The notes: a model not told the origin generated them from the sequence alone. Positions 2,389 to 53,775 are shown, counted from the stretch's first letter. The stretch is 64,000 nt of DNA from Massalongia carnosa (GCA_965645245.1 OZ287071.1:2666001-2730000), one strand, 5' to 3'. A program made the numbers and translations.

Positions 2389-3093
2389 TCACTCTAGCTC
2401 CTTGTGCTCGCTATCGTTTTCATCCTCATCCTCATCCTCATCCTCATCCTCATCCTTCTTTACCCAGCCCTTAGCTAAGTTCTTTCTCGTTACACGCAGC
2501 TGCTCCGATGCTAACATCCTTCAGGGTCGGATGGCAGCTTCCAGTAAGTTTTTCCATTCGACAGCGTGATCAAGATATTCTGCAAACCTAAGCAAGTACT
2601 TCCGCTTGATCCAACGGCCTCTCGTGCCCTAGAAACGCTTGGCAAATTCTGCAGCAACTGGATTACTCTTTCTGTGGTCAGGCAGTCAGGCTTGGCGCAA
2701 AAGTGAAATCGCGAATTCCAATAGAGATACCGAGCTCGGGGACGATGATTACTCGTGAACTGGACTTGTTGACCATCTAGTTCGCGCCAGAGCTTTCGTT
2801 TTCCGTGGGGCTCGTTATCAGCACTGATGAATGACACCACCTGTCTCATAAGTCTGTTATCTGGGCAAAGGACTCGCAGCTTGTACCCTTTGACCTTCAG
2901 TTGAGCCCAAGCATCAAGTTCCCCAACCGATGCATCGACCGGCACATCAGGCACAAGCACCATCCATCCGTTCGCTATCCTCTTCTCAGCTTCATCACAC
3001 ATCATCAAGCCATTTTCTGGCTCGAATAACTCTGCTCTAACTTCATCATCTCGCTCAAAAAACTCGTCCATAGCTGTTTGTCCAGCGACATAC
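2389..3093 (-). pseudogene. Fungal HNH-endonuclease (HNH_2-like) gene, 5' truncated and frameshifted
   Basis: ELFEPENGLMM..GWMVLVPD..YKLRVL..WRELDGQQVQF..RPRARYLYW resembles fungal HNH_2 proteins. Frameshift near 2700. Acidic tail encoded by (tcatcc)n at about 2420-2455. The N-terminus is replaced by the retroelement starting near 3095. Confidence 0.65.
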
Positions 3094-3095
3094 TA

Positions 3096-4675: not shown

Positions 4676-4679
4676 GCTG

Positions 4680-30062: not shown

Positions 30063-32090
30063 TTACGTCTCGTCCGGGATAGCGAAAAACTCCAAGTCTT
30101 TTCCGAGAGTGACACCCTTGACTTTCTTCCGTCTTCTTGCCTTGACGAGTAGCTTTAGGAGCTTCCCGCTACTCTTTGGGACATCCGTCTGTAGGAACAT
30201 GAACGAGATCAACAAGACCGGCGCAGACACGGCAATCCAAGCCCAGAGATGGATCGATGAGCTGGTGCCGAGCTCGGTTACATTCATGCCAAATAACGCA
30301 GCCGTGAAGGATAACGGAACGAAGAAGAAGGCAAGTTTAGTTAGTTTGGCGACCTTTTCCGCCTGTATCAAGGCATTCTGCGACTCTTGAGCCATGGCGT
30401 TTTTCATGATGATTTCCATGCCCGTGTCGCATTCGGCCGCGAGCGCTCGGGCCTGAGCGAGGAGACATTCGAAATCCTTGACCAAGCGAAGGGTGGCCTT
30501 CTGTGCAGTGAACTCGGGGTTCTGATGAGGTGGCCAATCGCAGTCCGCTCGGCCCTGAATGAACGTGATAATATCTCGAATGTATTCCGCATGGCGCTCG
30601 AGGAACTGTTTGTTGTAAACCACATTTGACAAGGCTTGGCTATCTCGCTGGATAATAATCGGGTGATTGAGTTCGGCCCGTAGACTTTTCTTTATCATGT
30701 TAAACAGCTGTTTTTTCGTGAAAGCTTCAAATCGGAGAACATCATGTATGGCATATACCGGATCACAGGCCATGATCTCTGGATTAAGCTTCTGACCGTA
30801 GTTCAAGTGAAGGAGAGAAGCGCTCTGGAGAATATCATCGTGCGGCCGGGGCAATCCTGTAGTATCGGCCAAAGGTGGGCGAGGTCGGTGTTGCTTCAGC
30901 GCGACTCGTGGGCTATGCTGAATAGTGGGGAAATATTCGATTTGCCAAGATTTCGTGCTCCAAGGCTCAGTGTTCCAAGGCCCGTGGGGGCTTCGGTTCA
31001 AGTCGTTGCCGACATCGAGCCAGATGATTGCTATCGAAGCGTCAGCATATAGGGTCTCGCTTAATCGTTTCCGCTCAGGATGTATACCGATCCAACCTCT
31101 CTGCGCCGCCGTGATGTATATCGAAATGTTCTGTTCGATCGAAAAGTACTCTCTGTCATGAATCGAAAAGTCCCGCACGATGGAGTCGCCGAGGTGTGCT
31201 TCGGGGTTGCGCTGTCTGGATAGCCCGTCAAAATATTCTCTCAATGAAGCTCGCGCTTCCTTCCTCATCGCATCTAGCTCTCTCTGCGACAGTGGACAGG
31301 TTCTTCCGCGTGCCTTGCGAACACCAATGGTCGTTACGCGCAGGCGAAGCATGTTTAGATTCGTTGAGGGCAGCGAAGGGGATGAAAAGTAGTCTGGCCT
31401 TCCGATCGTCGCAGCAAAGTCGCGGTGCCGGCAGAAGAACTCCGGATCGACATGGTATTTGGCTCCAATATGATTGAGCCATTCCGGCGACGCGTTCCCT
31501 CGAAGAAACAGCAGTCTTCCATCCTTGCAGGCATCGTAGCTGGATCCCTCTTGCTCCTCACGGCGAGTGCGCTCTGCTGGCCCATCTACGTCGGAGGTTG
31601 CGGTGTCATTATCAATGCCGTCCAACTCCTCAGGCGTCTTCACGTATCGGAATCGCTCCGTCCCCTTCTTTCCGAGTCGGTACAAGGCTGCAAATTCATC
31701 ATTCTGATCCCGGGGATCAGCGATCGTGCCTCCGGCGGGGACCGATGGAGCATGGGTTTGGAATGGCTCCAGGAGGTATGAGGCAAGGCTGCCAAAATTG
31801 TGGCCGGGATAGAGCGAGTCGGCAATGGACTGCTCGGAGTGTGCTTGCACTGCGTTGGCATATCTGCGCGGAGTTCCTGAAGTCACGTACAACACGGTTA
31901 TAGGTTAGCCTTGCCTTCTCACGACACGTGACTTCAATCAGTCTAACGAACGTTGTTTGCTTCGCCCGAATTTGGACTGGAGAGGAATGAGGGTGGGAGA
32001 CTGTTGTCGCAACGGATGGGTGTGAGTTGACGTTGCGGCGGAACTTGGCCGTGCTGGCCTACCAATAGAGACTACATCGTTGGAGGTCAT
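30063..32090 (-). CDS. CorA-like membrane protein (long fungal type, about 631 aa), 3 exons: 32090-31952, 31876-31088, 31030-30063
   Basis: C-terminal KLTKLAFFFVPLSFTAALFGMN followed by a second TM helix (WAWIAVSAPVLLISF). N-terminal LFLRG..SPEWLNHIGAKYHVDPEFF. Introns 31951-31877 (GTTCGT..GCTAAC..CAG) and 31087-31031 (57 nt) give an uninterrupted frame. Confidence 0.85.
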
Positions 32091-33052
32091 CACGCTTCAG
32101 CTCTTGTACATTCCACGCAACGAGGCGATTGGAGAATTACAATGGCCAGGCTTTGTGTGGTGTAATCGTAAGACTTACGTCTGGGGTTCTGACGATCCCT
32201 ATTGCGACTCTGCCAATTCCCACGGAGAAAAGAGATAAAGGTTCCTGATTCATGTCTTCATATTATGCGGTAAGAGTCTCTGCTTTTAAGCTATTGTGAT
32301 GAGCCTTTCACTCTCATCGTCGCGGAGCCGCAGAGGTCTTTGATATGAGGAGCCACGAGGACTTCTCGGCATCAGCAAGGCATCATGTACGACACGAAAG
32401 ACAGCAAACCGCTTCGCAGACGATAGGAGAGTAGGAGATGCACGTAGACTTGAAATCCACGACCAATCGACTATTCTCCAACCCTTTCGACAATGAATTG
32501 ACGTGTACTCGGTTTGATATTAATCTTTTCCTAACTGGTCCGTGTCATCCTCTTCCATGGTAGAGAATATCTTGCTAGAGAGTACCTTCTTCTAACCTCT
32601 TGTGCCTGATGCCTTGGTGTTCTTACGAAAGCAGGTGAAACAGCATGGACTCTATTGTATTACCTTTCGAAGAAACAAGTGCACTAGATGTGGCACCTTT
32701 AATTGGTCCCGGGTGAATGCGGCCTAATTAACGATTAAGCCATAAGAATTAAAATCCCCATTCGGGTCCATCGTTCCTCGTGTGGCCTAGAAATGCTGTG
32801 TTCGGTTTTTTATTCGGCCTCAACTGTTGAGCTGCCCAACGGGCCACAGCAAATTGAGATTTTGGGCACGGGTGTGGTGTTTATTGCATGAGGGAGGGGG
32901 CTCAGTCAACCCAGCAGGCACCCGTGCGAATCAGGCGCTTTCGAAAATTTGACTCATGTCGGTGGGTGATCATAGGGATATAGGTATTACAAATTGCTAC
33001 TCCCTAGCGCCAATAGACCCCAGCGAAATTCGAAGCTTCATTATTAAGTTAA

Positions 33053-35525
33053 GGGAATCAATACCGGGACACCCCTTTTCACTACCTTGACACCCCATTT
33101 CACTATATTAACACCCCCCAAGTAAGCTAACCAAATCGGGTTGTTTCTCCGTTCCGGAGCTGGAACTTCTAAAATTTCTGCACTCATATCTGCATCCATT
33201 CCATTCGTCATTGCATGCACATTAACCAATCAGCTATCAATATAAATCTTGCCCCTCCCACCCACATGCTGAACGAAACATATGGATCGCTCAATCTTCT
33301 TCTTGTCGCCATGCAAAAACACGCAGGCTCTGAGGGGTATGCTGTCTGCTAGCTTCGCACCAAAAAGTGTGCGACCACTGGATTGATAGACACATGTTAT
33401 ATTTGTTGCGACCGAGGACGAAAGGACCGTCAGCCTCGAGGACAGAAACGCTTACATGGAACCTCCAGGACCATTGACTGTCCTTTCTCTGTAGTGGTCA
33501 AGTCTAAAGACGATGAATGGATAGTTCACGATATTCGAAATCTAGTCCACAATCACTCTGCTACCGTGGAAGGCTCTCATCCATCGCTCAGAAAACTTGC
33601 TATCACCCCAGCTATAGCTGATGAAATTGTGCGCGCAACGAAGGTGCAAATGAAACCGAGTCAAATCCTTTCGTCTCTTCGGCTCGGTCAGACTGACGAT
33701 ATAAATGACAATAATCCTCTTTTCAAGCGACAAGATATTTATAATGCGAAGGCGGAAATTCGACACAAGGCACTAGGACGACTGACTCCCATTCAGGCGT
33801 TGATGCAGGAGTTAAATCAGCCTCATTGGTATGTACGGAGAAGATGCAATGTTTTACATACTAAATTGCAGTAGGAATTCGTTTTATCTCAAAGACAATC
33901 TCGATCGCATAACACATCTTTATTTCAGCAAAGATTCCTGTCAAAGCACCCTGATGACCAACCCCGACGTGTTAATCATGGACTGCACCTATAAAACAAA
34001 CAGATACAAATTACCATTGATATCAACAATGGGAACAACGGCCCTAAACACCTCATTTTATGTTGGGTTTGCCTTTCTTCGTCAAGAACGTAAAGAGGAC
34101 TATGTTTGGTTTCTTCAACAATTAAAAACCTTTTATCGAATGCTGAATATTTCCTATCCAAAGGTATTAGTCACCGATCGAGACATTGGCCTCATGGCCG
34201 CTATTTACAGTGTGTTTCCTGACACACGTCATTTGTTATACTTGTGGCATATTCACAGGAATGTTCAGGAGCATTGGAAACCTGTTTTTAGACATAGTGC
34301 TCATTCCAACGATGACTGGATGGCCTTCGAAAGCATGTGGCATGCGGTGGTTTATTCAAAGACCGAAGAGGAATATGAGGTCAATTGGGACGCTCTGAAT
34401 GATGCTTATTCACATGATCATTCAGCGGAAGTGCAGTATCTGGTAGACACATGGCTAGCCCCATATAAATGAAAATTCGTCAAGGCATTCGTCGACAAAG
34501 TTCTTCATTTCGACAATATTGCTACCTCTAGTGTGGAGGGGGGCCATGCTGTCTTGAAACATCAGTTGGGATTTTCTACCGGTGATCTCAAAACGGTGGT
34601 TGACAATATTGATTTGTTACTAAAGAATCAGCATCAAGAGTACGTGATAAAACTGGATGAGGCTAAAATGCGCTTTCCTACCCGACTACGAAGACCTCTT
34701 TACAGCGATGTAAGGGCTTATATCACGCCTTTTGCATTGTTGAAGGTGCATAGTCAGTACGAACGTCTTTTGGATCAAACGACCCCTCTTTCATTATGCA
34801 CCGGGGCATTTCGAGCAACAATGGGGCTACCATGTGCTCATGAAATCCAGGAAAGTTGATAAACTGAAGGAAATAGCCCTGAAAACGTACTAATTCTATT
34901 GCAATTAGGTTCGACTTTTGGCCCGGCCCCCAATGTGCTTCAGCGCGACGACATTCACATCAAATGGTGGTTTCAGCGCCCCCTTGATCGGGCTTATTAT
35001 CGCCACGAATCACCACCTCCAAATGTCATCGATCCTTTGCTATTGGTGCGCGACCCCGAGGTAGCAGCGCGACCCCGAGGGCGTCCGTCAATCGCGATGC
35101 GTTTACAATCGGAAAGAGCTCAACGGGAGGCTGATAACTCTACCCAACGGGAGTTATCAGGGTTCGAACATGTCGAGGAGGTGTTGAATGGGCCTCCGAA
35201 GCGGGGGCGAGGGCGAGGGCGAGGGCGAGGGCGAGGACGGGGCAGAGGACAGTCACAAGGTGAAGGGGTGACTTCCGGTGAAGCTATTCAATCGATTGAA
35301 GTAGATGGAGTGGGTTTGCTCCAGGCCTTTCAAATGTAAACACGAAATGAAGCCCAATTCAATGAAACAATCATCGAGAAAGCATCAAACGGCTGTCTAA
35401 AACACACCTGAATCGAGCATGTTTTCTCCAATTATTTCTGCGCCTGAGGGAAATTTATACCCGATTTGGTTAGCTTACTTGGGGGTATTAATGTAGTGAA
35501 AAAGGGTGTCCCGGTATTGATTCCC
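33053..35525 (+). mobile_element. MULE/Mutator family C element with both TIRs; transposase pseudogene
   Basis: TIRs GGGAATCAATACCGGGACACCC..cccccaagtaagctaaccaaatcggg and their inverse ending at 35525. Motifs CDRG..DCPF..HNH, LIMDCTYKTNRYKLPL, VTDRD, LWHIHRNV, EGGHAVLK, MGLPCAH, RPRGRP and a (GR)n tail. Premature stops. TSD not clean. Confidence 0.92.
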
Positions 35526-35583
35526 ATTATTAATTGTTGTGCACAGATGAGTTGAGTATAAACAACCAACCGCTCGGAGAGCA

Positions 35584-37589
35584 ATGAAGTTCCACACCCC
35601 CCTTAGAGTGAATCTCACGTCCTCGGCGCTTTGTGCATGTCATCCGGAATCTGGCGACCATCGGATCTTCAAGGTTGGCGAGGCCGATTATTTGGCATAT
35701 TTATCATTCCAGGTGAGTAGATACTCATCCGTATGCAGAGACGCTAAGGATCGTCGTGCCAGCTCCCCAAATTCTTCTGTGGACAGGTAGAACGCCCTGT
35801 AACAGTACTTCCGGTTGATCCCCAGACGTCAATCACAAAAGAATGGCTCGACCGCACTCTGCACATGTGTCGAAGCGACGAAATCTTCGATCAGAGATTT
35901 CTTTCCAGCCTTGTCTTCGTCGGTGCCGCCAAGAAGGACATGACAAGAACACGTGAAGCCCGGGAGCTGATAGCACTTCTTGACGCTGATTGGATTGAAT
36001 TTATTCCAAAGAATCGATGCCCTCAACAGCCGACGCTTGGCCCTCACATACTTTACCACTGTCGACTCTGGCAGGCTTTCAGGCTATGCGATGATGTGTT
36101 TGGAGCCTTCATCATTGGCTTGTACCCACAAAGCCCCCCTTGTAAGTCAAGGCATGTGATGGGATATGAATGCAAATTCTTGTGTTAACGGTACCTAGAC
36201 CTAAAACTACCACCGTATAAGGAGCTTCTCGTCCCAGGGAAGAGCTATCAAACGATCAGCATTGCGATACCATCTCGCGTCGCCTCCTTGAACTTTTCCA
36301 AGTCACAACCTTTAGCGGGCAGACGTATCGTGGTGAAGGACCTGTTCCATTTGAAGGGACTCAGGACCTCATTGTGTAATCGAGCCTATCTCGACATCAG
36401 CAAGCGGGCTGAACAGACTGCGTCTGCCGTGACAGCTTTGACGGACGCAGGGGCTCATGTGCTCGGGATGACCAAGCTTAGTTCTCTCATCTCCCGAGAG
36501 GAGCCGACAGAAGCCGTTGACTATCCGATGGCTTTTAACCCCCGAGGTGATGGCTATCAATCCCCTGCTGGAAGTAGTAATGGCAGCGCCGTTGCTGTCG
36601 CGGCATACACGTGGGTGGATTTTGCAATCGGGACCGATACATCGGGCAGCGGCAGACGACCTGCGCTTGTAAACGGTATCTTCCAGCTACGGCCAACCCA
36701 TGATGAGCGACACCTCGACGGTATGGTGCCCACATTCACGGATTGGGACACACCCTGCTTATTTGGGAGAGATATCACAAGGTTCGAGGAGATCGCGCGT
36801 GTTTGGTATGCTTCAAAAATGTTGTCTAAGCCCCATGAGCGTCTCAAGAAACCTGCCATCATCTACCCGTTGGATTACTTCCCGGTTCAAAACACTATGC
36901 AGATGGAAATTGTAGATCGCTTTGTATCCGACCTGGAGAGATATCTAGGAGTCGTGATCTTTAAAGTATCCATCGCTTCATTATGGGACAAAGACCCGCC
37001 GCTAGAAGGCAAAGGTCAGTCGGTAGAAGACTACTTGAGAGACACGGTGATTAATAGCTATTATCGTGAGTTTTATGACAACACTGAAAAATTTCGGGCG
37101 ATGTATCGAGGGAAGCATCACAAGGAACCATTTGTCACTCCGTTTAATCGTTGGCGCTTGGAGATAGGCGAGCAGGTCTCTGAGGCGCAGTATGAGGATG
37201 GCAAACATCGTCTTTTGGTCTACAAGCAATGGTTTCTGAAAGCTGTGATGCAAGAGGGCGAGCTGGAAAGTTTCCTCGTGCTTCCGATTGCCAACGTAGA
37301 GCCTAACTACCGCGACACCCCGCCGCCTGAACCCAGTCCGCCAACGGGGTTTGATTCTTTGTTCATTCCTCCGATCCTGGGTTCACCGGACTTGGTCGTT
37401 CCTCTCGATGAAATTCCATACCACTCGCGCATCAGCAACAGGAAAGAGTTTCTGCCCGTGGCAGTTGATATCGTAGGGCTTCCACGCGCTGATCTTGCGT
37501 TGATCAAGACAATACAAGAATGCTTAAACGCAAGCGGAAGAAAACAGAAAGTCCACGCCGGCTCTAGGATGTTTCAAGATAATATCTAA
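35584..37589 (+). CDS. Amidase-signature family enzyme (about 632 aa), 3 exons: 35584-35712, 35763-36141, 36199-37589
   Basis: Catalytic motifs are intact: IVVKDLF (Lys), PAGSSNGSA (cis-Ser) and GTDTSGSGRRPA (nucleophile Ser). Two GT..AG introns (50 and 57 nt) keep the frame. The start codon is inferred. Confidence 0.88.
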
Positions 37590-37771
37590 AGCTGTTTATC
37601 GGGCTTTCCTTGGACCAAGGGGTTCGCCCGGCCCCGCTGTTTCCATCCAGTACTTCCGCCCGGTATGTGCCGTTCCATTGTATGTATCGCTGGAATCTGG
37701 CAGTTTTCATCAATGATATTTTGACATATGTGTGCTAACCTCACACAGACATCCACTACGCTAAGAATACT

Positions 37772-40700
37772 TCACTTTGACCAAAACGTAATGAGTGCGT
37801 CAAAATCCTGCTCTGTTAGGTCTTTGTATCCTTTAGTCTCCTGCGGTGAGAGGCTCTTCAACATCGCCGCGGCCTGCTTCAACATGACCATAGCTCCCTG
37901 CTCGTCACCAAGCCCATACATCACCTTCGCCTTTAAAAACGATGTCCTACCGATTTCCGGCTCGTAGGCCGTTTTGTCGGCATTCCAGACGGAAAGTGCT
38001 TGATCCACAAAGAGTAGAGCCTTTCCGTAATCCCTATGCCGTAGGCAATGCTGCGCAATCTTATGGCAAACATCCGCCGTTCGATGGTGATTATTCCCTA
38101 AAACCGCTTGATAGGAAGCAAGTGCTCTTTGATGATATGACTCGCTCTCCTCAACGAAACCTTGGTCGGCGCGGACGTTTCCGAGAGCATGTAGCAGTCG
38201 TCCTGTCCTACAGCGCGGTTAATTGCCCATTGTATCAAGTCCTGCCGCTCACGCTTACCGGAACGATTCGTGATCATCCTTGCCGAACATACTTTCCCTG
38301 TCAAACAACCCTTGTTTCAACACCTCATATGCCTTTTCGAGACGATCCTGTAGCCAGTACGCGAGTCCTAGATTCGCTAAGGGGATTGAGAGCATATACT
38401 TGTTAAAATTTGATAATTCCTGGTACGTGTCTATGGCTCTCTGGAAACTTGTTGCTGCTTGAAAAACGTTATTTTTCATCATCAACGCGGTGCCCATTTG
38501 ATTGTAAGCTATCCCAAGCCACAGGTCGGCTTTCCTGTTCTTCTCCCTTATCGTTTCCCGGATTTTCAACAAGGCAGCGTTGTGGTAAAAACACGACTCG
38601 GCGTCATTAGTCTCGTTGGCTACAGCTCCTAGGCTGTAATGAATATCGGAGAGCAGGTCTTCAATATCTCTATGCGAGTTCTGTTCACAAATCTCGTAAG
38701 CTAAGTGAAGAAGATCCCTATTGCCATCAGAGCTTTGGGAATTGCCCTTTTCTGTCTGCCACCTGCTCCCAAGGTCAGCGGCTAAGCAGATAGAGACCTG
38801 TAGCTGAACTAACAGCAGCAACGACAAATGGGGAAGACACCCACCAGCCGGCTTCGTTTAACAACATCGCGAACTTCACATGTAGATCCGAATCTCCTTT
38901 TAGTTTATGCTCGATATACAAGGTCCGCAGATAGAGGATATGCGGATAGATCCTTTGATACAAGGCCCATCTTTTGATATTATGCCGCCCCTCTAATGAC
39001 GCTTTCGGCCAGACAAGATGAACAAGGTTAACGGCGCTGGTGAACACCCACAGTCTTTCTTGGACATCCATCGTGCCTCGTACAATATCTTGCAGCACTC
39101 GATGAATCCAGAGCTCACCTTTCTCTTCGTTGCGACGAATAAGCGACCCACTCAGGAGCTCTGCCTGTGCAGAATTAAACTCGTTCTTAGTTTTAGGGAA
39201 TTCTAAAGGCACCTCTAGGCTCGTGGGATGAGACCTAAGAAGCTGTTCAGGAATGAAATCGGGGATACTATCCGGATCTAGAAACGCGAGGAGTTTCAGC
39301 AAACTTCTTGAATGCGGCTTAAGCGTTTCAATGGCCCAAACCGTTGCAACACTGCCCCGAGCTGCCAATTGCCGTGGTTGCAGTTCTAAGCTGTACAACA
39401 ATAGCCTCTCCGTCTGGTCATCATACGTGCTCAGAAAATCCGACTAAGTAAGCATCTGACGGTGAATGATGCCAGCCATTTGAGAAATTGCAAGGGGAAG
39501 GCCGCCTAATTTCTTTCCAATCTGAAGAGTGTCCTCTGGCTGGCGCGTCTTACCTACTATTTTGTACAGCAGAGCTCTGGCATCTTCATCGTTGAGTGGT
39601 TTGAGATCGACGGCCAACGAATTGGATGAGAAAGTGTCTTTGGCAAGTGGATGTCGACTAGTGACCAGGACAGATCCGCTAATAAAAAAGTGGGTATAAT
39701 GCGCAAGAACGTCTGGATCATCTGCATTATCGAATACGAGCAGCCAATTCGCTTCCGCTGTTCCAATAAAGTCGTTTTCGTGGTCGAGGAACTTTTTCGG
39801 ATTCGAGAGCCAGCCCTTGGCTAACTCACGGGAGATAACCTGGCGCTCTGCAGCATCACCGATTTCTTCAAGGCCAAGATATGAGGCAATCTTCGCGACG
39901 TCGGTATCCAGCTTATCCTGATCATCAGCACGCAACCAAAAAATAGCGTCAAACTTGTCTTTTCTTGAGAACACAAGCTCTAAAGCAATCTCGGTCTTCC
40001 CTAAGCCCCCCATGCCGCAAATAGCTGCGTATCTTCGCTGCTGCGACTCGGAAGAGACGAGAAATTCCTTTGTTGGCAGCAGAGTAGTGTCTAGTCGCTC
40101 CAGCACATCTCCGCGCCCGACGAAGTTACTGTTCTGCTGAAATGTCTCTACCATAAAGCACGGAAGCTTTGCCTTCTTTCGGACGGGAGAGAATTTGTCT
40201 ATGATTGGAACCATGATGGTGTCGAAAGCCGTCGAGCCATGGCTAGCTTGTCCGGTGTCGTCTTTTTGAGCGTCGCTCGTAGGCTCTGAGTTGGCTAGTT
40301 TACTCAACGCTTGAGACACAGCCTCAGCCTAAACCATATTATAGGAAGAGATAGGGCGCACCATTTCGCATTGCGCTGAGTGACGAAGTGCTACTTGATG
40401 TTGAGCTCGGCGCATTCCGAAGATGAACTTTTCGTATCAGCAAACCTACTCTAATTCTCAAGGACCAACCAATCTGAAAAGCGAGAAGCTTGACCGACAT
40501 CTTTTCATGCGCACTGCGATGTTTTGCATAGACACGTCAATAACATCCATAAGCCACTGTAGGACTTGGTTCTGGGCTTCTTCAGAATCATCTACCAGCT
40601 TGTGAAGACCCAGGTGGTTCAGCTGAAGACCAAGAAACTGTTCATAATGCGACTGCGTGGTGCAGAGTGCTTTGGCCACGAGCTACAACATTCAGTCAGT

Positions 40701-41553
40701 AGCTCCATAATCTAACATGAGGTCGAAGAAGCTCACTATTTGCTTTGAAGACTTGGCAAAAAAACTGGACTTCTCGATTTTGGTTACTCGCTTCTCGTAG
40801 ATGGACATGATATCGACATGAATGTTCATGTCATGAAATCGGTTCGCTACATCTTCGAGCATCCAAAAGTCTTTGATTAGATCAGACATTTGCTGCTTGC
40901 TAAAGACTACACCATTCGAGCAACATTTGAGAAGGAGGAATATTCTATCCCGAAACTCTTCTTGATTTGACTGATTATGCGGTGTTCCTAGAAACATGAT
41001 TCCAGAAATCAGATTTAGGACATGAGCATATCTGTGGTGCTTTTGATTCGCCAAAGAGAGAGCCTACACCAATTGTCAGATGTAGAAGAAGCACCTTTAT
41101 CGCGGGCATACCTGTTTGACAATGGTGCCTCCCAAGCTGTGGCAGATGAACAGAATTGGGCGTTGAGACTGCGTGCAATTAGTAATACCTTGGCAGAACA
41201 ACTCTATGGCACCAATGAAAAGCCACCTTTGTCTCGGCGTAAAGAGTGTATACTGCATTTAAAAGATCCTCCCCAACTGTCAACAAGCCTCGCCAAGAAA
41301 AGTCTTCGTCGACTTTCAAATCATGATCAAAGGCAATAATTCTGGATTGTGCGTTGCATCCTGACAAGCCGTCCAAAAAGCTTGGAGACAAAATAGCCCA
41401 CTCTTCAACGGCTGCGCATCCAGGCCTCGGCCCCGGCACCAAGATGAGGCTCACAAGCCGGTCAGTAGGTAACCGATGTGATGCTATCTGGAGAAGTCCT
41501 TACTCGAGATCTTGTAGCTTTGTTCGGCGAAAGGCGGAGCTCGCGCAGAGCAT
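37772..41553 (-). pseudogene. Fungal NLR: SesB-like alpha/beta hydrolase - NB-ARC - TPR; multi-exon, with in-frame TAG codon(s)
   Basis: Spliced N-terminus RPILFICHSLGGTIVKQAL..GIMFLGTPH..LNH. P-loop AICGMGGLGKTEIA, Walker B WLLVFDNADD, VLVTSR, GGLPLAISQMAG, winged-helix LWIHRVLQD, then TPRs (LGIAYNQMGTAL, LANLGLAYWLQ, TGRLLHALGNVR). TAG at 39444-39446 interrupts a continuous frame, and a second probable TAG lies at 40329-40331. Start codon uncertain. Confidence 0.85.
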
Positions 41554-42409
41554 CCGGCAGTTTTTCTCTATCAGCGTACATAATACTAGCAGCGCCCGAA
41601 ACCTGTAGTTATGGAGGAGTTTCGAGGAATGACATTGATGTAGTACCCGACTCTTTAGGCTCAAGTTTTGCGACGTGGAAATTCGAGCAATATAAGGTCA
41701 ATTACCGACTTAATGGCGATTAAACTCAGTGTGTTGCTATTAATTCTAGTTGGTGGAGAAGAGATATATTGCTCATCTTCGCATTAGTTGCTTCTAATCT
41801 TCATGCCAAACGCCTTATCCATCAAACAAGGCAATCTAACCATATGATTGCATCATCTGTAGCACCTACCTGGCTTCCCACTGGGACGAAACCACGTCAG
41901 TACTGATATGCACGTGCAGCAAAGCAATGGTCGAAGGAAGTCCGAGGTCTGCATCTTCTCGTGCAGGTAAGTTATTTTTTTATTTTATTAACTCATTAAG
42001 CGTATGCATCCTAAGGATATGACGCTGTGACTGCTATTTATGGCAGGTGACTTGTAGACGTGAGGCTCAAATACTTCGCTTCAGCCCCCACTACCTCCCT
42101 CCTCTTCAATACACCGTTGCTTCAATTCAGTCCTCACTCATCAACCTGTTCATCGGCAAGACGAAGCCATTTAGCTCAATAAACGTCAATTCAATAGCCT
42201 CACAACAAAGGTCATGAATCGGGACTGCCGCATCATCCCCAGATCGCTGAATAACAAAGGTGTATAACCTTCTGCACATCAGCAAAGCGAAGCCTTTGAA
42301 TTCAACAAATCATAAGTCAAAACTCACAAGGTAAACTCCAAAACCTGGGCTGCGGCATCCTCACAAGTCGGCTGAAAACCACAGTAGCATACCCTCCTCC
42401 TTCCTCACG

Positions 42410-42652
42410 ATGCCTGAAGCCAATGCCGTCAAAGCTCAACCTTGGAAAGTGGGCTGGCCTCCTGGGCCCCCAAACAGTGAAGAAGCTACGCAGAAGTCCG
42501 GTACGCAACACGGATTCAAGAAGAATGAAATGGTGGTTATGGATGGCAATATCGCGCCTAATGATGGCAATGCCACGCCTAAGGATGGCAATGTCGCGCC
42601 TAATGATGGCAATGCCACACCTAATAACTCTGATCCCCCCAAGCTGAAATGA
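42410..42652 (+). CDS. Possible 80-aa peptide with four DGNxxP(N/K) heptad repeats
   Basis: ATG-to-TGA ORF containing a 21-bp tandem x4 (about 42542-42625) encoding DGNIAPN-DGNATPK-DGNVAPN-DGNATPN. Coding status is unproven. Confidence 0.35.
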   Translation: MPEANAVKAQPWKVGWPPGPPNSEEATQKSGTQHGFKKNEMVVMDGNIAPNDGNATPKDGNVAPNDGNATPNNSDPPKLK

Positions 42653-42943
42653 CCGAAATTGTCGACCAGTGTTGACGGTGTGGCTAAGCGAGGATGAATG
42701 TCAGTCGTTCATCGAGGGCACGCTTCCTGGGAGTTTGTTGTTTTCGATATCAGCTAAAGGGCGTTTTTACACATAAACTTATGTTACGAGAGCCATTCAA
42801 TTTATCACCACACATGAAGTGCACGTCTAAATTCACTCATAACTGTCCCCAAAGTATTCAAATCATATCCGATGAATGTTCGAGCAAACCTCCTTTCTAA
42901 CAAGCCGAGGCTCCATGAAATGTGCCTAGCCGCCTACCGTCCT

Positions 42944-44069
42944 TCAGCGAGTCCCATAAATATTACTCAATTCAGGAGGTAAACAATCAGTGTTGATGTA
43001 AAACAAATACGCTCTGCACTCGATACTTTCACGCGGGGGTTCAGAAGGGTCGGCCATGGGGTTGAAGAACCCGGTATGTGGACAGACTGAATCCGTCGAA
43101 ATATTAGCAAGACTCATCGAATGAGGGTTCCCAGAGAGCGAGTGCATACCTGCATTCCTTAAGTTCTCGGACGTCGCGCTTTTGAAAATCAAGACTTCGG
43201 ATGGAAGTTGCCGCGGGAGGTGAAACCATTTCTGGGATGGGTTGTGGTGGATTTGCAAGTTCTCGGTATTACAATCGCGATAAACGATGTCACCGGACAT
43301 CGTGTCTGCTGCAAGATCGACGCTGGAGGCATCACACAGGGCAAGCGGCCAGTCTTGTAATGGTCCGCGGAGAGGTCTCCATGCGCTAAAGCTTGTCAGC
43401 GGCAGAAAAAGACGTTGAGGTTTAGGAGGCCTCCATTACTTGACAATCTGCCAGGGGCTTTGCAACAGCTTGTCTGCCTCATGCCCGTACACGTTCCGGA
43501 GCATGAGCTGCGCTTCTTGTCTGGTGAAGTCTGACCAAATCTTTAGAAGCATGCCAGAGTCGTGTTGACTTTCACTTAGCTATGTACTCACCAACATGAG
43601 CCATGGCGGTAGGCTGGGGATGTTGGTAGTCCTCGCCGGTAGAAAGGGGAAACGTATGATGACGGCGACGCACCTAAAACCGTCAACAAGCACGTCATCT
43701 AAATATGGCACTATCTTCACGAACAACATGGTCTAAGATATAGACGTGGGAAGCGCCAAGGTCCTTCAGTGCTTGCTTGAGTTCTTCCAGATACACGGTG
43801 TGAATCTTGGACTGATCCTTGAAATCTTCATAAGACATCTGTGACTCCAATGACATTAAGCGAAAACCACATTCATTAAAGTCAAGATCCTCCAAGCGTG
43901 GGCGCATGTTATGAATCGATATTGTATGGCACTTGTGCAGAATATTCGATTGATCTATGGAAATGTGAGGCGGATAACGCATACTGTACGGCTTTTCATG
44001 ATTGTACCGCGGATTTCTTGCTAGGAAGTATAAATCTGCCTCCAATCCATCATGAGGGTTAGAATTCAT
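42944..44069 (-). CDS. asaB/CmcJ/GA4-desaturase-like Fe(II)-dependent hydroxylase/desaturase, 5 exons
   Basis: Spliced product has LYFLAR..EKPY, ECGF, LGASHVYILDHVVRRR, QPTAMAHVDFT (HxD), WQIVNAWRPLRGPLQDWPLALCD, CPHTGF and RESIECRA. Four GT..AG introns preserve the frame. Confidence 0.88.
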
Positions 44070-44639
44070 GTTTATTTTCATATAGGAGGATGGCAACAGG
44101 GGATTCAACCTGCCTTGACCTCGGTAGTAGGTAGCCTCGAGAGGGCCAGCGTGAAGAGGATATGAAAGGGTTGAAGTAAAGCCACCAATCAATGTCGACG
44201 CCAGCACACATGATTACGAAGAAGTTCATGACTCTTCGAAAGCCTACTACTGCCAATGAGCGGCTAGCTCTTAAACCCGTAAATTAGTGAATGACACCTG
44301 TGCAGTATTAGACACAGTTTGCCGTCAGCCCTTAAGTGACCAATTATCGGTAACAAACATTGCGAACAGCATGCAGAGCGGTCATCAAAGAATTTGACGA
44401 TAACTTTTGTTATCATACACGGAATATCAACAAACAAAGAAATTGTAACGTTGTCTTACCTATTTATTGCTGAAGAGATTGAAGCATCGAAATCAACTTT
44501 GCACTTTTCGAGTCTTTCAAAGAAAGATAACAGACTAACAGCAATATTGTTACGTAAATACTCATAGTTCAAATGATTTCAAAAACCTGTCACGGTTCGA
44601 TTACAATAATCTAACTATCTGACTTTTTAAACACCTGAT

Positions 44640-47600
44640 TATTCTGATTGTCAAGTATAAATCATTTTAATCTTCAAAGAATCATTGCGATTCTGTAAAA
44701 CATGAATGAAAAATGAAAGGGAGATGAATTCATTCAATCAGCAATGCGCGCTCCTAAGTGAGCACTACGAAAAGAAGGAAAACTTGCGTGAGATGATTAA
44801 GGATTATCTTGATCGAGTGGGCATCGTTGGTGACCCGGTGGCACTACAGTTGCTGAAAAACTCAGCGGAGCTTTTGCAAGCACAAAAGCAAATTGACGAC
44901 GAAGTCGCAAAGACGCCCAACATCTTAAACGACACTTCTACTATCTATACAACAAACACTGACACGCATTGAACGCAACGAGACGACTCCTCGAAACTAC
45001 GCCGCTGCCGCTACGGGTCGAAGTCGCGATGGACCCGCGCCCTCAGCGAAACAAAACACCAAGCCTCAACAGACCCCTAAGGACAAAACACTCACACCGA
45101 AGGAAGTGAGACGCGCTCAGGAAATCACCGTTCACATAACGGAGAATGCAGATAAGGAAAAAATAAAGCTGATGCCAACCAACGAGCTGGTGGAAACATT
45201 GCAAAATGGAACGAAAGGAGTACGAGGAGTGTCGCGTTTATTAAACGGCGACATAAGGATTCATGTGGAATCATTGGAGGCAAAGAAAATCCTGCAGGAA
45301 AATACGGACTGGAGCCGGATGATGGCCGCTTCCGCGGCGGTTCACCCTCGTACCTTTACCATAAGGGCGAATGGGATCAAGGTGGAAAATATCAAAGTGG
45401 CCAATCAATAACGGCTATTGCGTACCTTCGGGCCGCTAACCCACACCTGCATCCTGACCTCAAAATCATCAAAGTAGCTTGGTCAGTCAAGGCCATCAGG
45501 GAGAAAAAAGCATACTCAACGCTACACATGAGGTCGCTACCGCCGAAATGGCCAACCGGCTCATCACCGAGAGCCTGATGGAGGACTACGAAATAAAGGA
45601 CTGTGAGCGTTTCACACGTGGTTGCACCATGACCCAATGCTTTAATTGTCAAAAATACGGTCATATAGGTAGAACATGTTGCAATCCCGCCGCTTGCGGT
45701 CACTGCGCTGGTGGATACTAAAGCAAACAATGTAATTTGGAGACAACTGGGCGCAGATGTGCCTTATGCGGAGAGAAGGGACAAGAAGCGTAGTCTACAG
45801 CATGCAAAGTCTGAAAAGCTGAAAAGCGAAAAACTGAAGTCGCTATGCAAAATCGTGTTCCTCTTTACACAATCGAGTCATAACTGCCGTGATTTTAATT
45901 GAAGTAAGCATCGACACTCGCAAACACATAAACGGACGAAATTCCGTCAACGTGGAAGACTGTCAATGGCAAGAAAAGAAAAATGCATAACGCGGCACTT
46001 CTACCAGGTCTGTCACCGGGCTCGCCTCGAGGAGAGCAACATCAACCTGGGCTAACATAGGCATAATGAATCCTGAAAATATGGTTAACCCCGCACAGAA
46101 TCCGTATCAGAGACGGAGATACCTCAGTCATCCCGGCCACAGTGGTCGAAACCATGGACATTCTATGAGGGACACAAAATCCCTCTCGATATTGTAGTAT
46201 AATGTTAGGAATGACAGAGTAAGTACCATGATACCCCTCGTAGCAGACACAAATACCTAGGATTATGATATCATCGCAGTACAGGAACCGTGGCGCAATC
46301 CTTCCGCCCAAACATCGCTCAGCTCACATCAAAGTGGCTTTCATATTCTTTATCGTCCAGGTGGCGACACTAGAGTGTGTTTTTATATCAACGATTCTAT
46401 AGACACGGAAAGCTGGGAGGTGGAATTCCCCTCGGCCGACATGTGCACGCTAAAGTTAGAAACATGCACAGAAGGAGTAGCGGAGGTGATTTATATACAT
46501 AACGTATACAATCCCTCCCCTGCATCCTATTCGTCTACTGACAGTACTTCCACCTTATCGACCGCTCGGAGCATGCTAACTGCAGGCGTACATCAAATTT
46601 TGCTTGGTGACTTCAACCTGCATCATCCCTTTTGGAACGGTCCTTCAAGACCAACACAACACGCTGCAGCTGATCAATTGTTAGAAATCATTGATGACTT
46701 CAATCTCTCGCTAACATTGCCGAAAGGCACCGTACATGGGAAGCAAGAAACAATTTTAGCACGATCGACTTAGTGCATGTCCAGACCAGAATTAAATCAA
46801 TCGTCCGATCACGTACCGATATCAACCCGCATCCTACTCGGTGGCGAGACGCAACCAAAAATAAAACGCAGGGCATGGAAACTATTCAATTTGGAAAAAT
46901 TAAGGGAAGCAGAGCGCCACGAACCTTCACCGGCGTCTCCCCATACACCTGCCGAGATTGATGCGTGCACAGAATCAACTTAGAAATTCCTACAAAACGT
47001 CATAAATATAGCCGTTCCATGGGCGAAACCTAGCGAATATGCTAAGCCTTTCTGGACTGAAGAATGCAATATTGCCACCAAAGCCACACGAAAACTACGC
47101 CGCACATGGTCTGACACACGAGACCTAGCGGATTGGTCCAGCTACATGAAATCCAATGACAAGAAACAGAAAATTATCTAAAAAGCAAAGAGGACAAATT
47201 TTCGTCAGGAGATCAGTAAGGCTGCCGAAACGTCTCAGGGTCTGTGGAGGCTAGCGAAATGGGCCAAAGACAAGAGTCACTCAGCTAGGGAAGTACACGG
47301 AATGCCGAAATTAAAGTTCAATGATCAAATAGCAGACACGTTCGACGATAAAGCTGAAATGCTGAAAAGCATCTTCTTTCCCGCACCACCACCGGCCGAT
47401 TTAAGCGATATAGAAGGATCCTTCTATCCAACATCGTCGCACTGTCCAATGATCATTACCAAGTCAGAAGTGTCAAAAGCCCTACATCGGCTCAAGCTCG
47501 ATAAGGCACCGGGCCTAGACGGCATATCTAACAGAATACTCAAAGCATGCGCAGAAAAACTCGTTGAACTATTAACACCTCTGTTTCAGGCGTGCGTCAC

Positions 47601-49452
47601 ACATTCGTACCACCCGCGGGCCTTTAAAATGGCAAACAAAATATCGGTAAGAAAAATAGACAAAGGATATTACACCACGCCGAAGGCTTACCGACCAATT
47701 GCATTACTCAACACGCTCAGCCAAGTAATGGAATCTATCATAGGATCAAAAATAACCTATTTAGCGGAAACACCCCGGCTCCTACCAGACATACAGATGG
47801 GAGTGAGAAAGGGCAGATCTACAGAATCGGCACTGGAGCTGTTAACTAACAAGTTCACACGATTTGAGGGCAAGTAAAGACAAAGTAGCCACACTTTTAA
47901 GCATGGATGTCGCCGGCGCATTTGATACTGTATCACATCAACGACTAACGCACAACCTACGCAAAAGAAAAATCCCAAACCGGATTACTGATTGGTTAAG
48001 CATCTTTTTAAATAATCGCAGCACTACTCTGGCCAAAAATCGGAAAGCAACCGGACGGTTCGCGGTAAGAACTGGCATACCACAGTGCTCCCCTCTCTCA
48101 TCCATTCTTTCTCTATTCTATAACGCAGACCTACTGGAAATATTGAACGACCAGGCACAAACACAAGTGTCATAGGATTTGTAGATGACGCCAATATTCT
48201 GGCATACGGAAAAAGCACCGAGGAGATTTGCAAGACTCTGGAGTCAATACACAGACAATGTGAAAAGTGGGCTTCTCGGCACGGATCCCTATTCGCTCCG
48301 ACTAAGTACGAACTCATTCACCTGTCCAGAAATCCCAAAAGATTCAATATGGCTGCATCCATCAACATTGCCAGTACCGAAATCGAACCAAAAACGGACA
48401 TCAGAGTCTTAGGCTTGCAAATTGACACCAAACTAAAATGGGACTGCATGTTCGCAAAACGCAAAATACAATGGTCAAACACTCCATAGCATTGACAAAG
48501 ATCTCCACAGCGACCTGGGGTGCCACCTTCGCCAAAACAAGGCAAGTTTACAGCGCCGTAGTTCGTCCGGTCATGACATACGGGTCAACCGTATGGCACA
48601 TGCCCAAAGAAGTCAAAAAGTCAAAAACGTCAACGAGAAAGCTTTCCGTCATGCAAAACAACTGTCTCCGCACCATAGCCGGCGCCTTCAAAGCCACTCC
48701 CATTCCAGTTCTTGAAGCAGAGACATATATAGCACCCATAGATGTACATCTCGACACGCTTCAGGCACAGGCCAGACACTGTCTCAGAGTTGGAGGTCAA
48801 TCGAAAGTCATTTCTTCCGCATGCAGCAGAATAGTTAACAAACTCCAAGGAAAGGTAGGCCGTAAACGCCTTCAAAAACCCACCCCAGGCGAGCTGAAGC
48901 ACACCTGGGCCAAAAACCTACTGATTGACGCAAAAATCGTTCAAACACCCAAACCACACCCACCATGGTCCGTTCCCTCCTCAGAAAATATCCTCGAAGT
49001 CCGCGTAGCAGCGTCGGCTCGTCAAAAACAATTGCGGACAATTAAAACACGACAGCTGAAAGTATGGAATGACTCGTGGCGCGCATATAAAAATCTTGTC
49101 ATCGAACCCTCTATAGCCCAATCAGTTCCACTGAGCAAAAAACGACTGAAAATACACACGCTGCTAAAAAAGGCAGAAAGCGCTCTGAAAACATAGATCC
49201 GTACTGGTAAGATCGGTTTAGCTGACTTCCTCTACGAGCGACGGGTCCCCGCTGTCACCTCACCGGCCTGCCCATGTGGCTGGCACAGACAAACTCCAGA
49301 ACACGTAATTATTTTCTGTAGACTCATTGACAACGGAAAACAGATGTTTCGCGCCGCTGGCACGAACAACTATCAACAACTGACCGAAACATCAAAAACT
49401 CTGAAGATATTAACTGCTTGGCTATTGAAAACAGGTCTACTGACCCAATTCA
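44640..49452 (+). mobile_element. Second Tad1-clade LINE, heavily decayed
   Basis: Fragments homologous to the LINE at 4.7-11.2 kb: IKDYLDRVG..DPVALQ, QCFNCQKYGH, LLGDFNLHHPFWNG, YRPIALLNTL, FVDD, CPCGW..HVIIFC. Many stops and frameshifts. The 3' end is cut near 49452 and the 5' boundary is approximate. Confidence 0.92.
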
Positions 49453-51566: not shown

Positions 51567-53775
51567 TCATTTGAATCGAAAACGTGTCAAAGCAGATATT
51601 GAAAAATTCGTGTACGCTCAGGTTTGGCTCTACTAGCTTCACTTTTACTCGGAGGCGAGATGATATCTCACGAGGATACTTGTGAGTATGCAAGGGGTTC
51701 CTGGTTCTAGGGGCTCCTGGTGCGAGTCTATCGGTGGACTTCAACATGAGTCTCCCCCATCCCAGCAGGGGATGGAGGGTACATCATAGCCCGCCTTCGC
51801 GGCCAGCCCCTCCTCGGCCCTTGTCGACCTGCCCCCTCTCCGCCGTAGGTAGCTGATTTCATATGTGGGTGGGACGGTGGGATGGTGGACTACGGGGGGT
51901 TGGGAGGATTGAGGGAATTGGGAGGTCGGGGTCCAGTGGGACGATGGGGGGAAGAAGACGCTGGAGGAGGAGCGGTTGCCCGATCTCAGCGACATCAGCT
52001 ATCACTTGCACCATCGGAACTCTCGAAAAATGAAGCCATAAAACTAGGGATAATGCGGGCATGAAAGGAGACAAAGATTGGCTATAAAACGTAAGAGTAT
52101 ACGGAGTATGAAACGGTGTTATATGACATTTAGTGATGTAGAGAAGACGAGTAGATTCGGGACAGACCCCATCTGGCAGACCCCTCGTAAAGTTCTACTG
52201 CTTATTATCCTCACACTAAATTAATAGTCCATCTACTAATGCAACGTCCCCCGCAAGCTTCATACACAGTATACCTACCTAGTTGATTATAACCCAGTCA
52301 CTTGCAACATTACTTGTTGCTGTAGCCAATTCAAACATCACACGTAGCTAGCCTCTGATTATTTGATGAGGGGTAATCATCCCATATACAGAACGTTTAT
52401 CATCTTTTCGATTATATTCTTTCTCTCAGTCATGGCCTCCGCCTTGTTTTCCCTAGATCAGAAAATTGAAAAGGCCAAGGCCCTTCTCCCTCCAGCCCAT
52501 TGTCTCCCTCCTCGAGAGGGAGAAGGTTTCGCTAGCTGGGAGGAGGGAAAGGCTCGTCTTCAGGACTATGCTTTTACCCAGGGCTTCGCGATAGTCATAG
52601 AATCTTTTCAGAAAACACGGGTGTCATGTTATTAGAATGCACACGTCACCATCGAAAAGAGAGAAACACCAGAAAAGTGGCTGAGACAGACAGACCGTCA
52701 ACGAAAGATTACGAAAGTTTCGTTCAATAACTACAAATATAGAGTCCGCCTGAGAAAAAAAAAAGATGAGATCTGGAGCTTAGCACTCACCAACCCCGTA
52801 CGCAATCATTCCATGGCCAATGATCCTTTCAGTTTCAAAGAACATCATAATAGGGACCCCGACCGAGCAGAAACCCTAGATCATGCGAAAGGTCTTCGCG
52901 ATTCATGTACTAAATATACCCAAGCCTCAAGAACTTTGCGTGTTCGGGGACTTCGTCTTTCGAAGAATGATTATTATAACCTAGTTCGATCTGAAGGGAG
53001 TCATACACCCGCAGAGGAAATGGATTATACACTTGGATGCTTGAAAGAACGAGGGTTTCACGTGCGCTGTTTGGAGAAATATATCATTGAAAACAACATA
53101 CGGCAGCGACGTGTTGTGGAGTTAATTTTCTTCTGCAATAAAGAGCAAATCAGATTACCAGACGTTTTGTCAGTGGGTTTTGATCGAACGGATGCAACGT
53201 TCAATACTAACAAATTGAACTTGCCTCTGTCCGTTGTAGTTGGAGTCACTAATACAGGACTTACCTTCCCCGTGGCCTACTGTTATATAACTTCCGAATC
53301 GGCGGAGTGCTTCACTTTTCTACTTGATTGTATGAAGAACTTGATCTTTGATGACGAATGCCATGGTCCTAGAGTCAAACTTGGAGACTTTGCAGCTGGG
53401 TTATCGGCGGCGATGCAGAGAAAAAGACTTTGGACAGTAGATGCTGACGCTGCATTGGGCATGGCATGGCAAGTCTCTCAATCGATGATCGCGGGCGGTT
53501 ATGACTGCGCTTTGCAGCTTTGCACCTGGCATGCAGCCGAAGCCATTAAGAAACGACTCATCAAGGCGGGGACCTATCCAGTAGAGATTCGGAACGAATT
53601 GATGGCGTTGATCTGGGCGTGGATAAAGTGAACAATTGAATGAAAGAAGGAGGACGTCGTTACAAATTGCACGATTCAGAAAAGGTATGTTGATGTGTAG
53701 AAGTTTGATGTTTAACCCTGAGGTTAAACCTGATTGAGTTAGAGTTAAGATTAATTTTCTCGAGGACTACGACTA

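Follow-up and report, generated by a model that had tools for sequence, protein, structure and literature searches.

Few of the micro-clusters formed by genes for NOD-like receptors (NLRs) in fungi have been worked out, namely HET-S/NWD2, gasdermin/protease and PLP-1/SEC-9, and the majority of NLRs in fungi still lack any known partner, cue or output. In clusters of the NWD2/HET-S type, NLR and effector are linked by a short amyloid motif present at the N-terminus of the NLR and the C-terminus of the effector, which has a HeLo-type or related domain. For PLP-1/SEC-9 (Neurospora, Podospora and Cryphonectria), Heller et al. reportedly found in 2018 that catalysis by the patatin head is required and that the partner recognised is an essential SNARE. 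Among bacteria, CorA effectors of type III CRISPR systems are gated by SAM-AMP. It has been reported that fungal NLR-effector clusters (NWD2/HET-S, sesA/sesB/het-eN, PNT1/HELLP) are conserved across genera and that their surroundings change (passages of PMC10197012). Here, we analyzed a stretch of 64,000 nucleotides from Massalongia carnosa (GCA_965645245.1, OZ287071.1:2666001-2730000), which as a whole is called the window below, and found that it contains one copy of a conserved gene module of Pezizomycotina. This module is real and apparently undescribed, and it combines an NLR gene with genes for a CorA-like membrane protein, an amidase-signature enzyme (amidase) and a CmcJ/NvfI/AsaB-type oxygenase.

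Four intron-bearing eukaryotic genes and one transposon were located within positions 30063-44081 of the window by open reading frame (ORF) analysis and Pfam/NCBIfam profile searches, all of them at the places given in a preliminary description made from the sequence alone (Table 1). Their order and orientation were CorA< >amidase <NLR <oxygenase. The spacing that had been described was also recovered: 182 bp separated the amidase and NLR genes, and the distance between the starts of the CorA-like and amidase genes was ~1.3 kb when the transposon, a Mutator-like element (MULE), was subtracted. Besides, the frames of the CorA-like, amidase and oxygenase genes, which had been called intact, proved to be so once short introns were allowed.

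Linkage was studied in public metagenome contigs, which were scanned with an alignment of CorA-like relatives. The scan yielded 52 loci, or 38 after near-identical copies were dropped; 22 of these matched the whole CorA-like protein and 16 matched the pore region or a fragment only. Partners were searched by tblastn (E <= 1e-4), using as queries the three other proteins of the window, their Cirrosporium orthologues and one intact oxygenase. When 2 kb or more of flank was required on one side, 11 full-length CorA-like loci were left, and 10 of them had at least one partner (NLR in nine, oxygenase in seven and amidase in four). With at least 5 kb of flank, at least one partner was present in 7 of 8 full-length loci, and all three were present in L010, L012, L015 and L034. 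The control loci, which matched only the transmembrane (TM) part of CorA, had a partner in 1 of 10 cases over 122 kb of control flank, and the single positive, L035, was a decayed copy of the module; the rest of the control flank was free of partners. L035 (positions 1-7694) contained a piece of amidase, a 107-residue CorA fragment and an intact NLR of the NB-ARC-DUF7779-TPR type.

An all-against-all comparison of ORFs from 13 loci and the window showed that the four module families alone recurred. Pfam searches of 35 flanking ORFs gave unrelated housekeeping genes that varied by locus (Sec23/24, adenylosuccinate synthetase, UPF3, GEMI5, MFS, GH88). Gene order varied as well, being CorA> <amidase <oxygenase <NLR in L010 and L015, <NLR >oxygenase <amidase >CorA in L012, and <NLR >CorA >oxygenase in L007 and L024. 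Except for the window and Cirrosporium (about 50-59%) and for L010 and L015 (about 70%), protein identity between loci was 25-40% for all four genes. That membership was kept at this level of identity, with shuffled order and changed flanks, argues that selection holds the set together. The core of the module is the CorA-like and NLR genes; the oxygenase is a usual member, and the amidase is frequent but the least constant (4 of 11 loci).

Linkage was also observed in named genomes, where it was read from positional locus tags among the best 120 matches listed, a set in which absence means little. In Cirrosporium novae-zelandiae (Xylobotryomycetes), the CorA-like (M1834_003261), NLR (M1834_003265) and amidase (M1834_003266) genes were found on a contig of 599,686 bp. 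Amidase M1816_002939 adjoined CorA-like M1816_002940 in Peltula sp., and the same two genes were close together in Cladonia borealis (amidase JMJ35_006575, CorA-like JMJ35_006579). Kuettlingeria erythrocarpa had CorA-like Q9207_006361 and NLR Q9207_006364 on a 15-kb contig, and in Lophiotrema nucula CorA-like and amidase genes were on contigs of equal size. Also, a single gene model of 1808 residues in Aspergillus mulundensis, DSM5745_01288, consisted of an NLR (residues 54-1145) and a CorA-like protein (residues 1256-1786), and represents either a fusion or a merge of neighbours. The conserved module spans at least five classes of Pezizomycotina.

Pairwise identities of the CorA-like proteins correlated with those of the NLRs (r = 0.79, 66 pairs), the amidases (r = 0.77, 27 pairs) and the oxygenases (r = 0.74, 43 pairs); correlations computed by sub-domain of the NLR did not discriminate which one co-varied best with the CorA-like protein. 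In trees of 12 linked pairs, CorA-like proteins and NLRs had 3 of 9 splits in common, and 58 of 20000 label shuffles did as well. In the comparison of gene trees proposed in the preliminary description, shallow splits agreed and deep splits disagreed or lacked resolution. The identity correlations and common splits fit co-inheritance, and this evidence is weaker than the linkage itself.

Several observations weigh against this picture. The CorA-like locus L027 had no partner within 6.9 kb of flank, and the CorA-like and NLR genes of Bogoriella among the matches listed were located on different contigs. The 38 non-redundant metagenome loci do not equal 38 independent species, since metagenome names recur and several loci may share one organism. 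The splits common to CorA-like proteins and NLRs were the shallow ones, 6 of 9 deep splits not being common, and any vertically inherited genes would show the same correlations and common splits. Finally, the NOD-region tree showed linked NLRs scattered across the whole NB-ARC-DUF7779-TPR family, which also includes a well-conserved clade of Aspergillus, Penicillium, Trichoderma and others. This scatter suggests that the association between CorA-like protein and NLR may be old, or that the whole family may share it. Most full-length members of the family (Aspergillus, Penicillium, Trichoderma, Xylaria and others) had a mean column identity of 61% over 1100 residues, an unusual likeness for NLRs that suggests a conserved sensor instead of a fast-evolving one.

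The CorA-like gene is represented by a long ORF of 613 codons (30063-31904, minus strand) that lacks an early ATG. In our gene model, which was predicted from the sequence together with its start codon at 32090, a first exon at 32090-31952 is followed by a 75-nt intron at 31951-31877 (GTTCGT .. CTAAC .. CAG) with the frame open, and a second predicted intron of 57 nt, in frame from ~31085, takes out 19 codons that relatives do not have. Pfam CorA (PF01544) matched only the final 90 residues of the protein, with 26.6 bits against a cut-off of 27, and its relatives with 28.7-47 bits. Two TM helices were found at the C-terminus, with the GMN motif (FGMNV) at the end of the first; GMN was kept in 20 of 22 CorA-like relatives, the variants being GMS in L017 and L034 and SMN in L001. 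An AlphaFold2 (AF2) model built with 12 relatives (pLDDT 68) aligned with CorA of Thermotoga maritima over ~515 columns, and this protein was also the best Foldseek match (E 2e-5, TM-score by target about 0.5). An alignment of this length indicates that the predicted CorA fold extends beyond the pore, and by this model the protein belongs along the entire subunit to the CorA fold, which comprises an alpha/beta/alpha N-domain, a long stalk helix and a TM hairpin. Predicted complexes of the NLR head (Cirrosporium P0025, residues 1-330) and the cytosolic part of the CorA-like protein (P0002, residues 140-600) scored 0.08 against a mark of 0.34, in a prediction run without alignments that weighs neither for nor against binding.

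The CorA-like family had 1107 representatives at E <= 1e-30. A HET-domain gene was found beside the CorA-like gene of L009 (301-2115, minus strand), and in L034 a second NLR of the PNP_UDP-NB-ARC-TPR type was directly upstream of the CorA-like gene (4565-7842, plus strand). These neighbours and the size of the family fit an immune-type family. Some members had additional parts. For example, P0334, P0367 (Whalleya microplaca) and P0396 were extended at the N-terminus by 450-630 residues, in which GDSG/GDCG and His motifs were present; two of the three came from contig gene calls, and the motifs were spotted by eye. A protein atlas placed the extension near clusters with 10-35% Trypsin-family members (scores 0.88-0.90). 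No match to it was obtained with Pfam, even at E values of up to 5, or with a profile search of the PDB, and AF2 of the extension-plus-CorA fusion P0334 (3 sequences) had a pLDDT of 32. A trypsin-like protease joined to the channel is a lead only. Similarly, the CorA-like part was joined to GPIID_WHD and ankyrin repeats in P0360 (Apiospora kogelbergensis) and to a DIOX_N oxygenase domain in P0398 (Thyridium curvatum), each of which may be a fusion or merged neighbours.

The NLR matched the profiles of NB-ARC (41.1 bits), DUF7779 (96 bits) and TPR_12 (56 bits), as well as TPR_10 and others. Its parts were arranged as an alpha/beta-hydrolase-like head, NB-ARC, DUF7779 and TPR, with the start codon at the 5' end not located. 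Walker motifs were present in the window (GMGGLGKTE and LLVFDNADD), and Walker A and B were conserved across all linked NLRs. A hydrolase motif, CHSLGG, was found on a small exon near 41100, and the head is classed by the nucleophile of this motif. A profile of the family head matched exons of the window NLR at E 1e-25 and 9e-14, and Abhydrolase_6 scored at the N-terminus of the homologues P0016 and P0039. The hydrolase-like head was present in 8 of the 9 loci whose contig reaches that end of the NLR. However, its nucleophile Ser was kept in only five of nine linked NLRs (window, Cirrosporium, L012, L024 and L034) and replaced by Gly in the other four (L007, L010, L015 and L017). This argues that hydrolase catalysis is no general step of the module, and catalysis by the head appears dispensable in nearly half of the lineages. 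The loss of Ser fits poorly with the mechanism suggested in the preliminary description, in which the NLR-activated hydrolase would release a signal for the amidase and oxygenase to process, and this signal would gate the CorA-like channel. In the NLR of L035, the N-terminal 330 residues were rich in Cys and His, without a Pfam match, in place of the hydrolase-like head. No DNA-binding domain was found by profile searches of the window NLR and its homologues.

Identity between the window NLR and its Cirrosporium orthologue P0025 (1100 residues) was 42-52%. The only sure lesion was an in-frame TAG at 39446-39444 (Q M L T, stop, S D F L), which faces a Phe of P0025 inside a conserved block. The remaining breaks of the ORF fell in alignment gaps of 16-19 codons or were common to L012, and are for this reason read as introns. 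Either the window NLR turned into a pseudogene recently, or the TAG marks a null allele or a sequencing error. Heavy decay or repeat-induced point mutation was ruled out because there was a single sure stop.

The Pfam amidase score (PF01425) was above cut-off, and the amidase was 55% identical to Cirrosporium P0136 over 562 aa. An in-frame TAA at 36186-36188 lies within a predicted 57-nt intron (GTAAGT..TAG). The enzyme has an N-terminal extension of ~110 residues; for amidase relatives, the source lists a pre-computed match to PF26053. The motifs VKD, GSSNGS and GTDTSGSGRRPA were all present (Lys / Ser-Ser / Ser), and by analogy with FAAH and MAE2 they presumably supply the Lys / cis-Ser / Ser triad. 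The gene upstream of the NLR, described earlier as an asaB-like dioxygenase, was indeed of the CmcJ/NvfI/AsaB type: the NCBIfam model CmcJ_NvfI_EfuI (NF041278) matched 42944-43435 above its cut-off of 80 bits, with the second match on 43695-44213. It has four exons, with predicted introns at 43720-43674, 43591-43531 and 43439-43386, an ATG at 44081 or 44069 and a TGA stop at 42944-42946. The HxD motif (AHVD) is restored by splicing of the second intron, and the second His lies in ..MPH..; these HxD...H residues are presumably the iron ligands. Catalytic motifs were conserved among the amidases and oxygenases of the module. A PDB sequence search with the amidase gave generic relatives only (allophanate hydrolase, 1e-14), and the solved structure nearest to the oxygenase was NvfI (2e-20, searched with the relative L024). 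As these relatives are generic, no substrate can be named for either enzyme.

The region is covered by contigs of four runs, which come from three studies. From 35.6 kb on, read depth was about double that of the CorA-like gene, with a second set of letters at about half of the depth. These letters represent a second version of the stretch from amidase to oxygenase (35600-44400), 5-10% diverged and of about equal depth. Among the variant letters listed for the amidase, all 7 of 7 protein-changing codons gave the residue of P0134, an amidase 88% identical to that of the window and located on a contig of 1.63 Mb. P0001, a CorA-like protein 72% identical to that of the window, is on a contig likewise of 1.63 Mb. 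The letters matching P0134 and the equal size of the P0001 contig suggest that the same samples contain two versions of the module. With about 1:1 in each run, the ratio points to two copies per genome more than to polymorphism within a population; a heterokaryotic or mixed thallus that carries alleles is a possible alternative.

The module copy of Massalongia carnosa is decaying, as the TAG interrupts its NLR and a MULE occupies the promoter region that the CorA-like and amidase genes have in common; these two genes and the oxygenase gene are still intact. Pieces of MULE transposase were found at 33353-35339, with the frame broken by stops. In run X4, one contig passes directly from 33022 to 35541 without the MULE, which shows that the insertion is polymorphic. 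The module as cargo of the MULE was ruled out, the transposon being missing from other loci and from this contig. The surroundings within the 2.81-Mb contig were transposon-rich, with LINE, several MULEs and Tc5/pogo remains; outside the module the window contained two LINE-type elements (reverse transcriptase and endonuclease), another three copies of MULE and a DDE transposase of the Tc5/pogo type (Table 1). The high-copy repeat between NLR and oxygenase had 20-30 times the depth of its neighbours in four runs and was not part of the module at other loci; beside it, at 42538-42621, was a 21-nt tandem repeat in three overlapping 42-nt copies. Genes for a cytochrome P450 (95 bits) and an FAD-dependent monooxygenase were present at 11606-13034 and 15698-17099 (both on the minus strand), 13-18 kb upstream of the module and amid LINE remains, and did not recur in related loci.

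Table 1. Features of the module and other elements of the 64,000-nt window of Massalongia carnosa (positions counted from its first nucleotide; TIR, terminal inverted repeat).
Feature	Position	Strand	Evidence
CorA-like membrane protein gene	30063..32090	-	Pfam, gene model, predicted CorA fold, GMN motif
MULE transposon	33053..35525	+	MULE 91.5 bits, FAR1; 44-nt TIRs 33053-33096 / 35482-35525
Amidase-signature enzyme gene	35865..37589	+	PF01425 93.9 bits; alignment to Cirrosporium P0136
NLR gene	37772..41499	-	Hydrolase-like head, NB-ARC, DUF7779, TPR
High-copy repeat between NLR and oxygenase	41975..42461	.	Read depth, loose ends
CmcJ/NvfI/AsaB-type Fe(II)/2-oxoglutarate oxygenase gene	42944..44081	-	NF041278 115.5 and 47.2 bits
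Transposon remains of the window	6082-7939 (-), 46261-47874 (+), 52636-53628, 53863-55638 (-), 57566-58150, 62385-63446 (-)		LINE-type, MULE and Tc5/pogo elements

With regard to function, we infer that the module may be a response unit under control of the NLR, in which the CorA-like channel provides the membrane output and the two enzymes form a small-molecule arm, and we tentatively put the probability of this reading at about 0.4. By the usual logic of NLRs, the sensor would be at the TPR end and the output at the head. A head that often lacks its active site points to a partner as the source of the output, and since the linked partner is a membrane channel, a channel controlled by the NLR is favored. 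In such a unit, a cue would be sensed by the TPR part of the NLR, NB-ARC would then oligomerise, and the clustered heads, acting as a scaffold more than as an enzyme, would switch the linked CorA-like pentameric channel. The resulting cation flux would be the output of the module and might lead to cell death or a stress state, and oxygenase and amidase might produce, alter or eliminate a small amide-bearing compound, which would act as cue or brake. The scaffold is supported by L035, whose NLR has another head and which keeps only a fragment of CorA. On the other hand, the strict GMN filter would be equally expected of an ordinary cation-selective channel and of a killer, and the role given to the amidase and oxygenase is a guess, these genes being present at four and seven of the 11 loci. 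A stronger form of the proposal, in which the module is a widespread and so far undescribed arm of fungal innate immunity with the CorA-fold pentameric cation channel as executioner under NLR control and the two enzymes making or destroying a small-molecule messenger or brake, is possible and at present doubtful. If true, it would be a eukaryotic counterpart of bacterial systems made of a sensor, CorA and a signal-degrading enzyme, and would point to a design rule across kingdoms: a STAND or CRISPR sensor, a CorA channel and a signal-processing enzyme.

The CorA-like protein might instead be what the NLR guards, and not the output. In a pair of this kind, serving as guard or in allorecognition, the NLR would watch the CorA-like protein, and perhaps the enzymes, through its TPR part, much as PLP-1 monitors SEC-9, and a mismatch or disturbance would activate the NLR, whose lipase-like head would kill. 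The architecture of the NLR agrees with that of PLP-1 (lipid-hydrolase-type head, NB-ARC and TPR), the constant pair of the module is CorA-like protein and NLR, and between the window copy and the second version the CorA-like protein (72%) was less conserved than the amidase (88%). It has also been reported that mimpvic32 of Morchella importuna, a gene with a CorA-like domain (PF01544) and polymorphic alleles (92.6% identical), belongs to an interval linked to vegetative incompatibility (sections of PMC8940278 on this gene). However, this gene is likened to ours by description only and its role is not proven, the four of nine NLRs without the head Ser could not kill by themselves, and the depth ratio of about 1:1 of the two versions in four runs suits paralogues better than alleles. 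We consider a guarded CorA-like protein unlikely, but as a rival it ranks close to the favored reading.

A small metabolic or detoxification cluster is likewise unlikely, and is as close a rival. Here the enzymes would degrade or tailor a compound, the CorA-like protein would move the compound or a metal, such as one needed by the Fe-dependent oxygenase, and the NLR-like STAND protein would be a ligand-sensing regulator, for which the bacterial STAND regulator MalT is a model. This accounts best for the enzymes and worst for the NLR. It is consistent with the catalytic motifs kept in both enzymes, with the kept membership in shuffled order, which is typical of fungal metabolic clusters, with an oxygenase family familiar from secondary metabolism (nearest structure NvfI) and with the CorA-like member of Thyridium curvatum that is fused or merged with a DIOX_N oxygenase. 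In contrast, the most constant partner of the CorA-like gene was the NLR (9 of 11 loci) and not the enzymes, the NLR has no DNA-binding domain by the searches above, and no backbone synthase (polyketide synthase, nonribosomal peptide synthetase or terpene synthase), transcription factor or MFS/ABC exporter recurred among 14 loci and 35 flanking ORFs. Besides, no fungal metabolic cluster is known to be regulated by an NLR. That accessory genes came to lie side by side by chance, or that synteny is conserved although the genes have no link in function, might be expected of an accessory-like, transposon-rich region and of gene families as large as fungal amidases, NLRs and oxygenases, but it is very improbable with partners at 10 of 11 loci and at only 1 of 10 control loci, varied order and orientation amid unrelated flanks at 25-40% identity, adjacency in four or more named genomes that belong to different classes, and one gene model in which the parts are joined. 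The refutation foreseen in the preliminary description, unlinked relatives in other genomes, fails.

The statement of that description that no fungal system of this composition had been described agrees with our full-text literature searches, which found no paper in which a fungal NLR is tied to a CorA-like protein, to this amidase or to an oxygenase of the CmcJ type; a full-text search for DUF7779 found no paper. The passages searched in four fungal NLR surveys (PMC4986451, PMC12258605, PMC9815663 and PMC10197012) named no CorA-like, amidase or dioxygenase neighbour, and their supplementary neighbour tables might list such genes. NLR micro-clusters with a membrane-acting partner are already known in fungi, and this composition is apparently undescribed.

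Among the known systems, the module resembles NWD2/HET-S-type clusters in that an NLR is kept beside the gene for a membrane-targeting protein, and differs from them in its full hydrolase-like NLR head, its CorA-fold channel partner and the two enzymes alongside. PLP-1/SEC-9 shares with the module a lipid-hydrolase-type head followed by NB-ARC and TPR and a linkage to the partner gene across genera. However, the head of the module is an alpha/beta-hydrolase often without Ser, and its partner is not a SNARE but resembles a channel and comes from a large accessory family. Type III CRISPR systems with CorA are similar in having a CorA-fold membrane protein beside a sensor system and an enzyme that possibly processes a small signal; in contrast, the module has no Cas10 or nucleotide cyclase, its enzymes are an amidase and an oxygenase, its locus is eukaryotic with introns, and PADLOC CorA models matched its TM region only (E 5e-4 to 9e-3). 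Gasdermin/protease clusters (HET-Q1/HET-Q2, RCD-1), as outlined in parts of PMC10197012, also bring together a protein that forms a pore or channel and an activator under control of a sensor, whereas here there is no gasdermin fold and a protease is only a lead. The window NLR falls in the broad architectural class of sesB-like alpha/beta-hydrolase NLRs (Dyrka et al. 2014, the relevant passages of PMC4986451).

With regard to CorA-domain proteins, mimpvic32 is different from the module gene in its size (765-773 aa) and its 8 introns, and in the text on this gene no NLR was reported adjacent and causality was not shown (PMC8940278, in part). The module is a candidate explanation for this incompatibility-linked gene of morels. 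In a lichen genome, expanded CorA genes were noted beside HET, ankyrin and P-loop families and were taken as a magnesium supply for the alga (PMC3897900, in part); the linkage to NLRs suggests another reading of such expansions in lichen fungi. The pair of NLR and CorA-fold protein is new and directly testable, as intact orthologues exist in culturable Aspergillus mulundensis and Talaromyces. Compared with the partners known from HET-S/NWD2, gasdermin/protease and PLP-1/SEC-9, this pairing would bring an ion channel, from a transporter family that is universal, into the set of immune partners of fungal NLRs.

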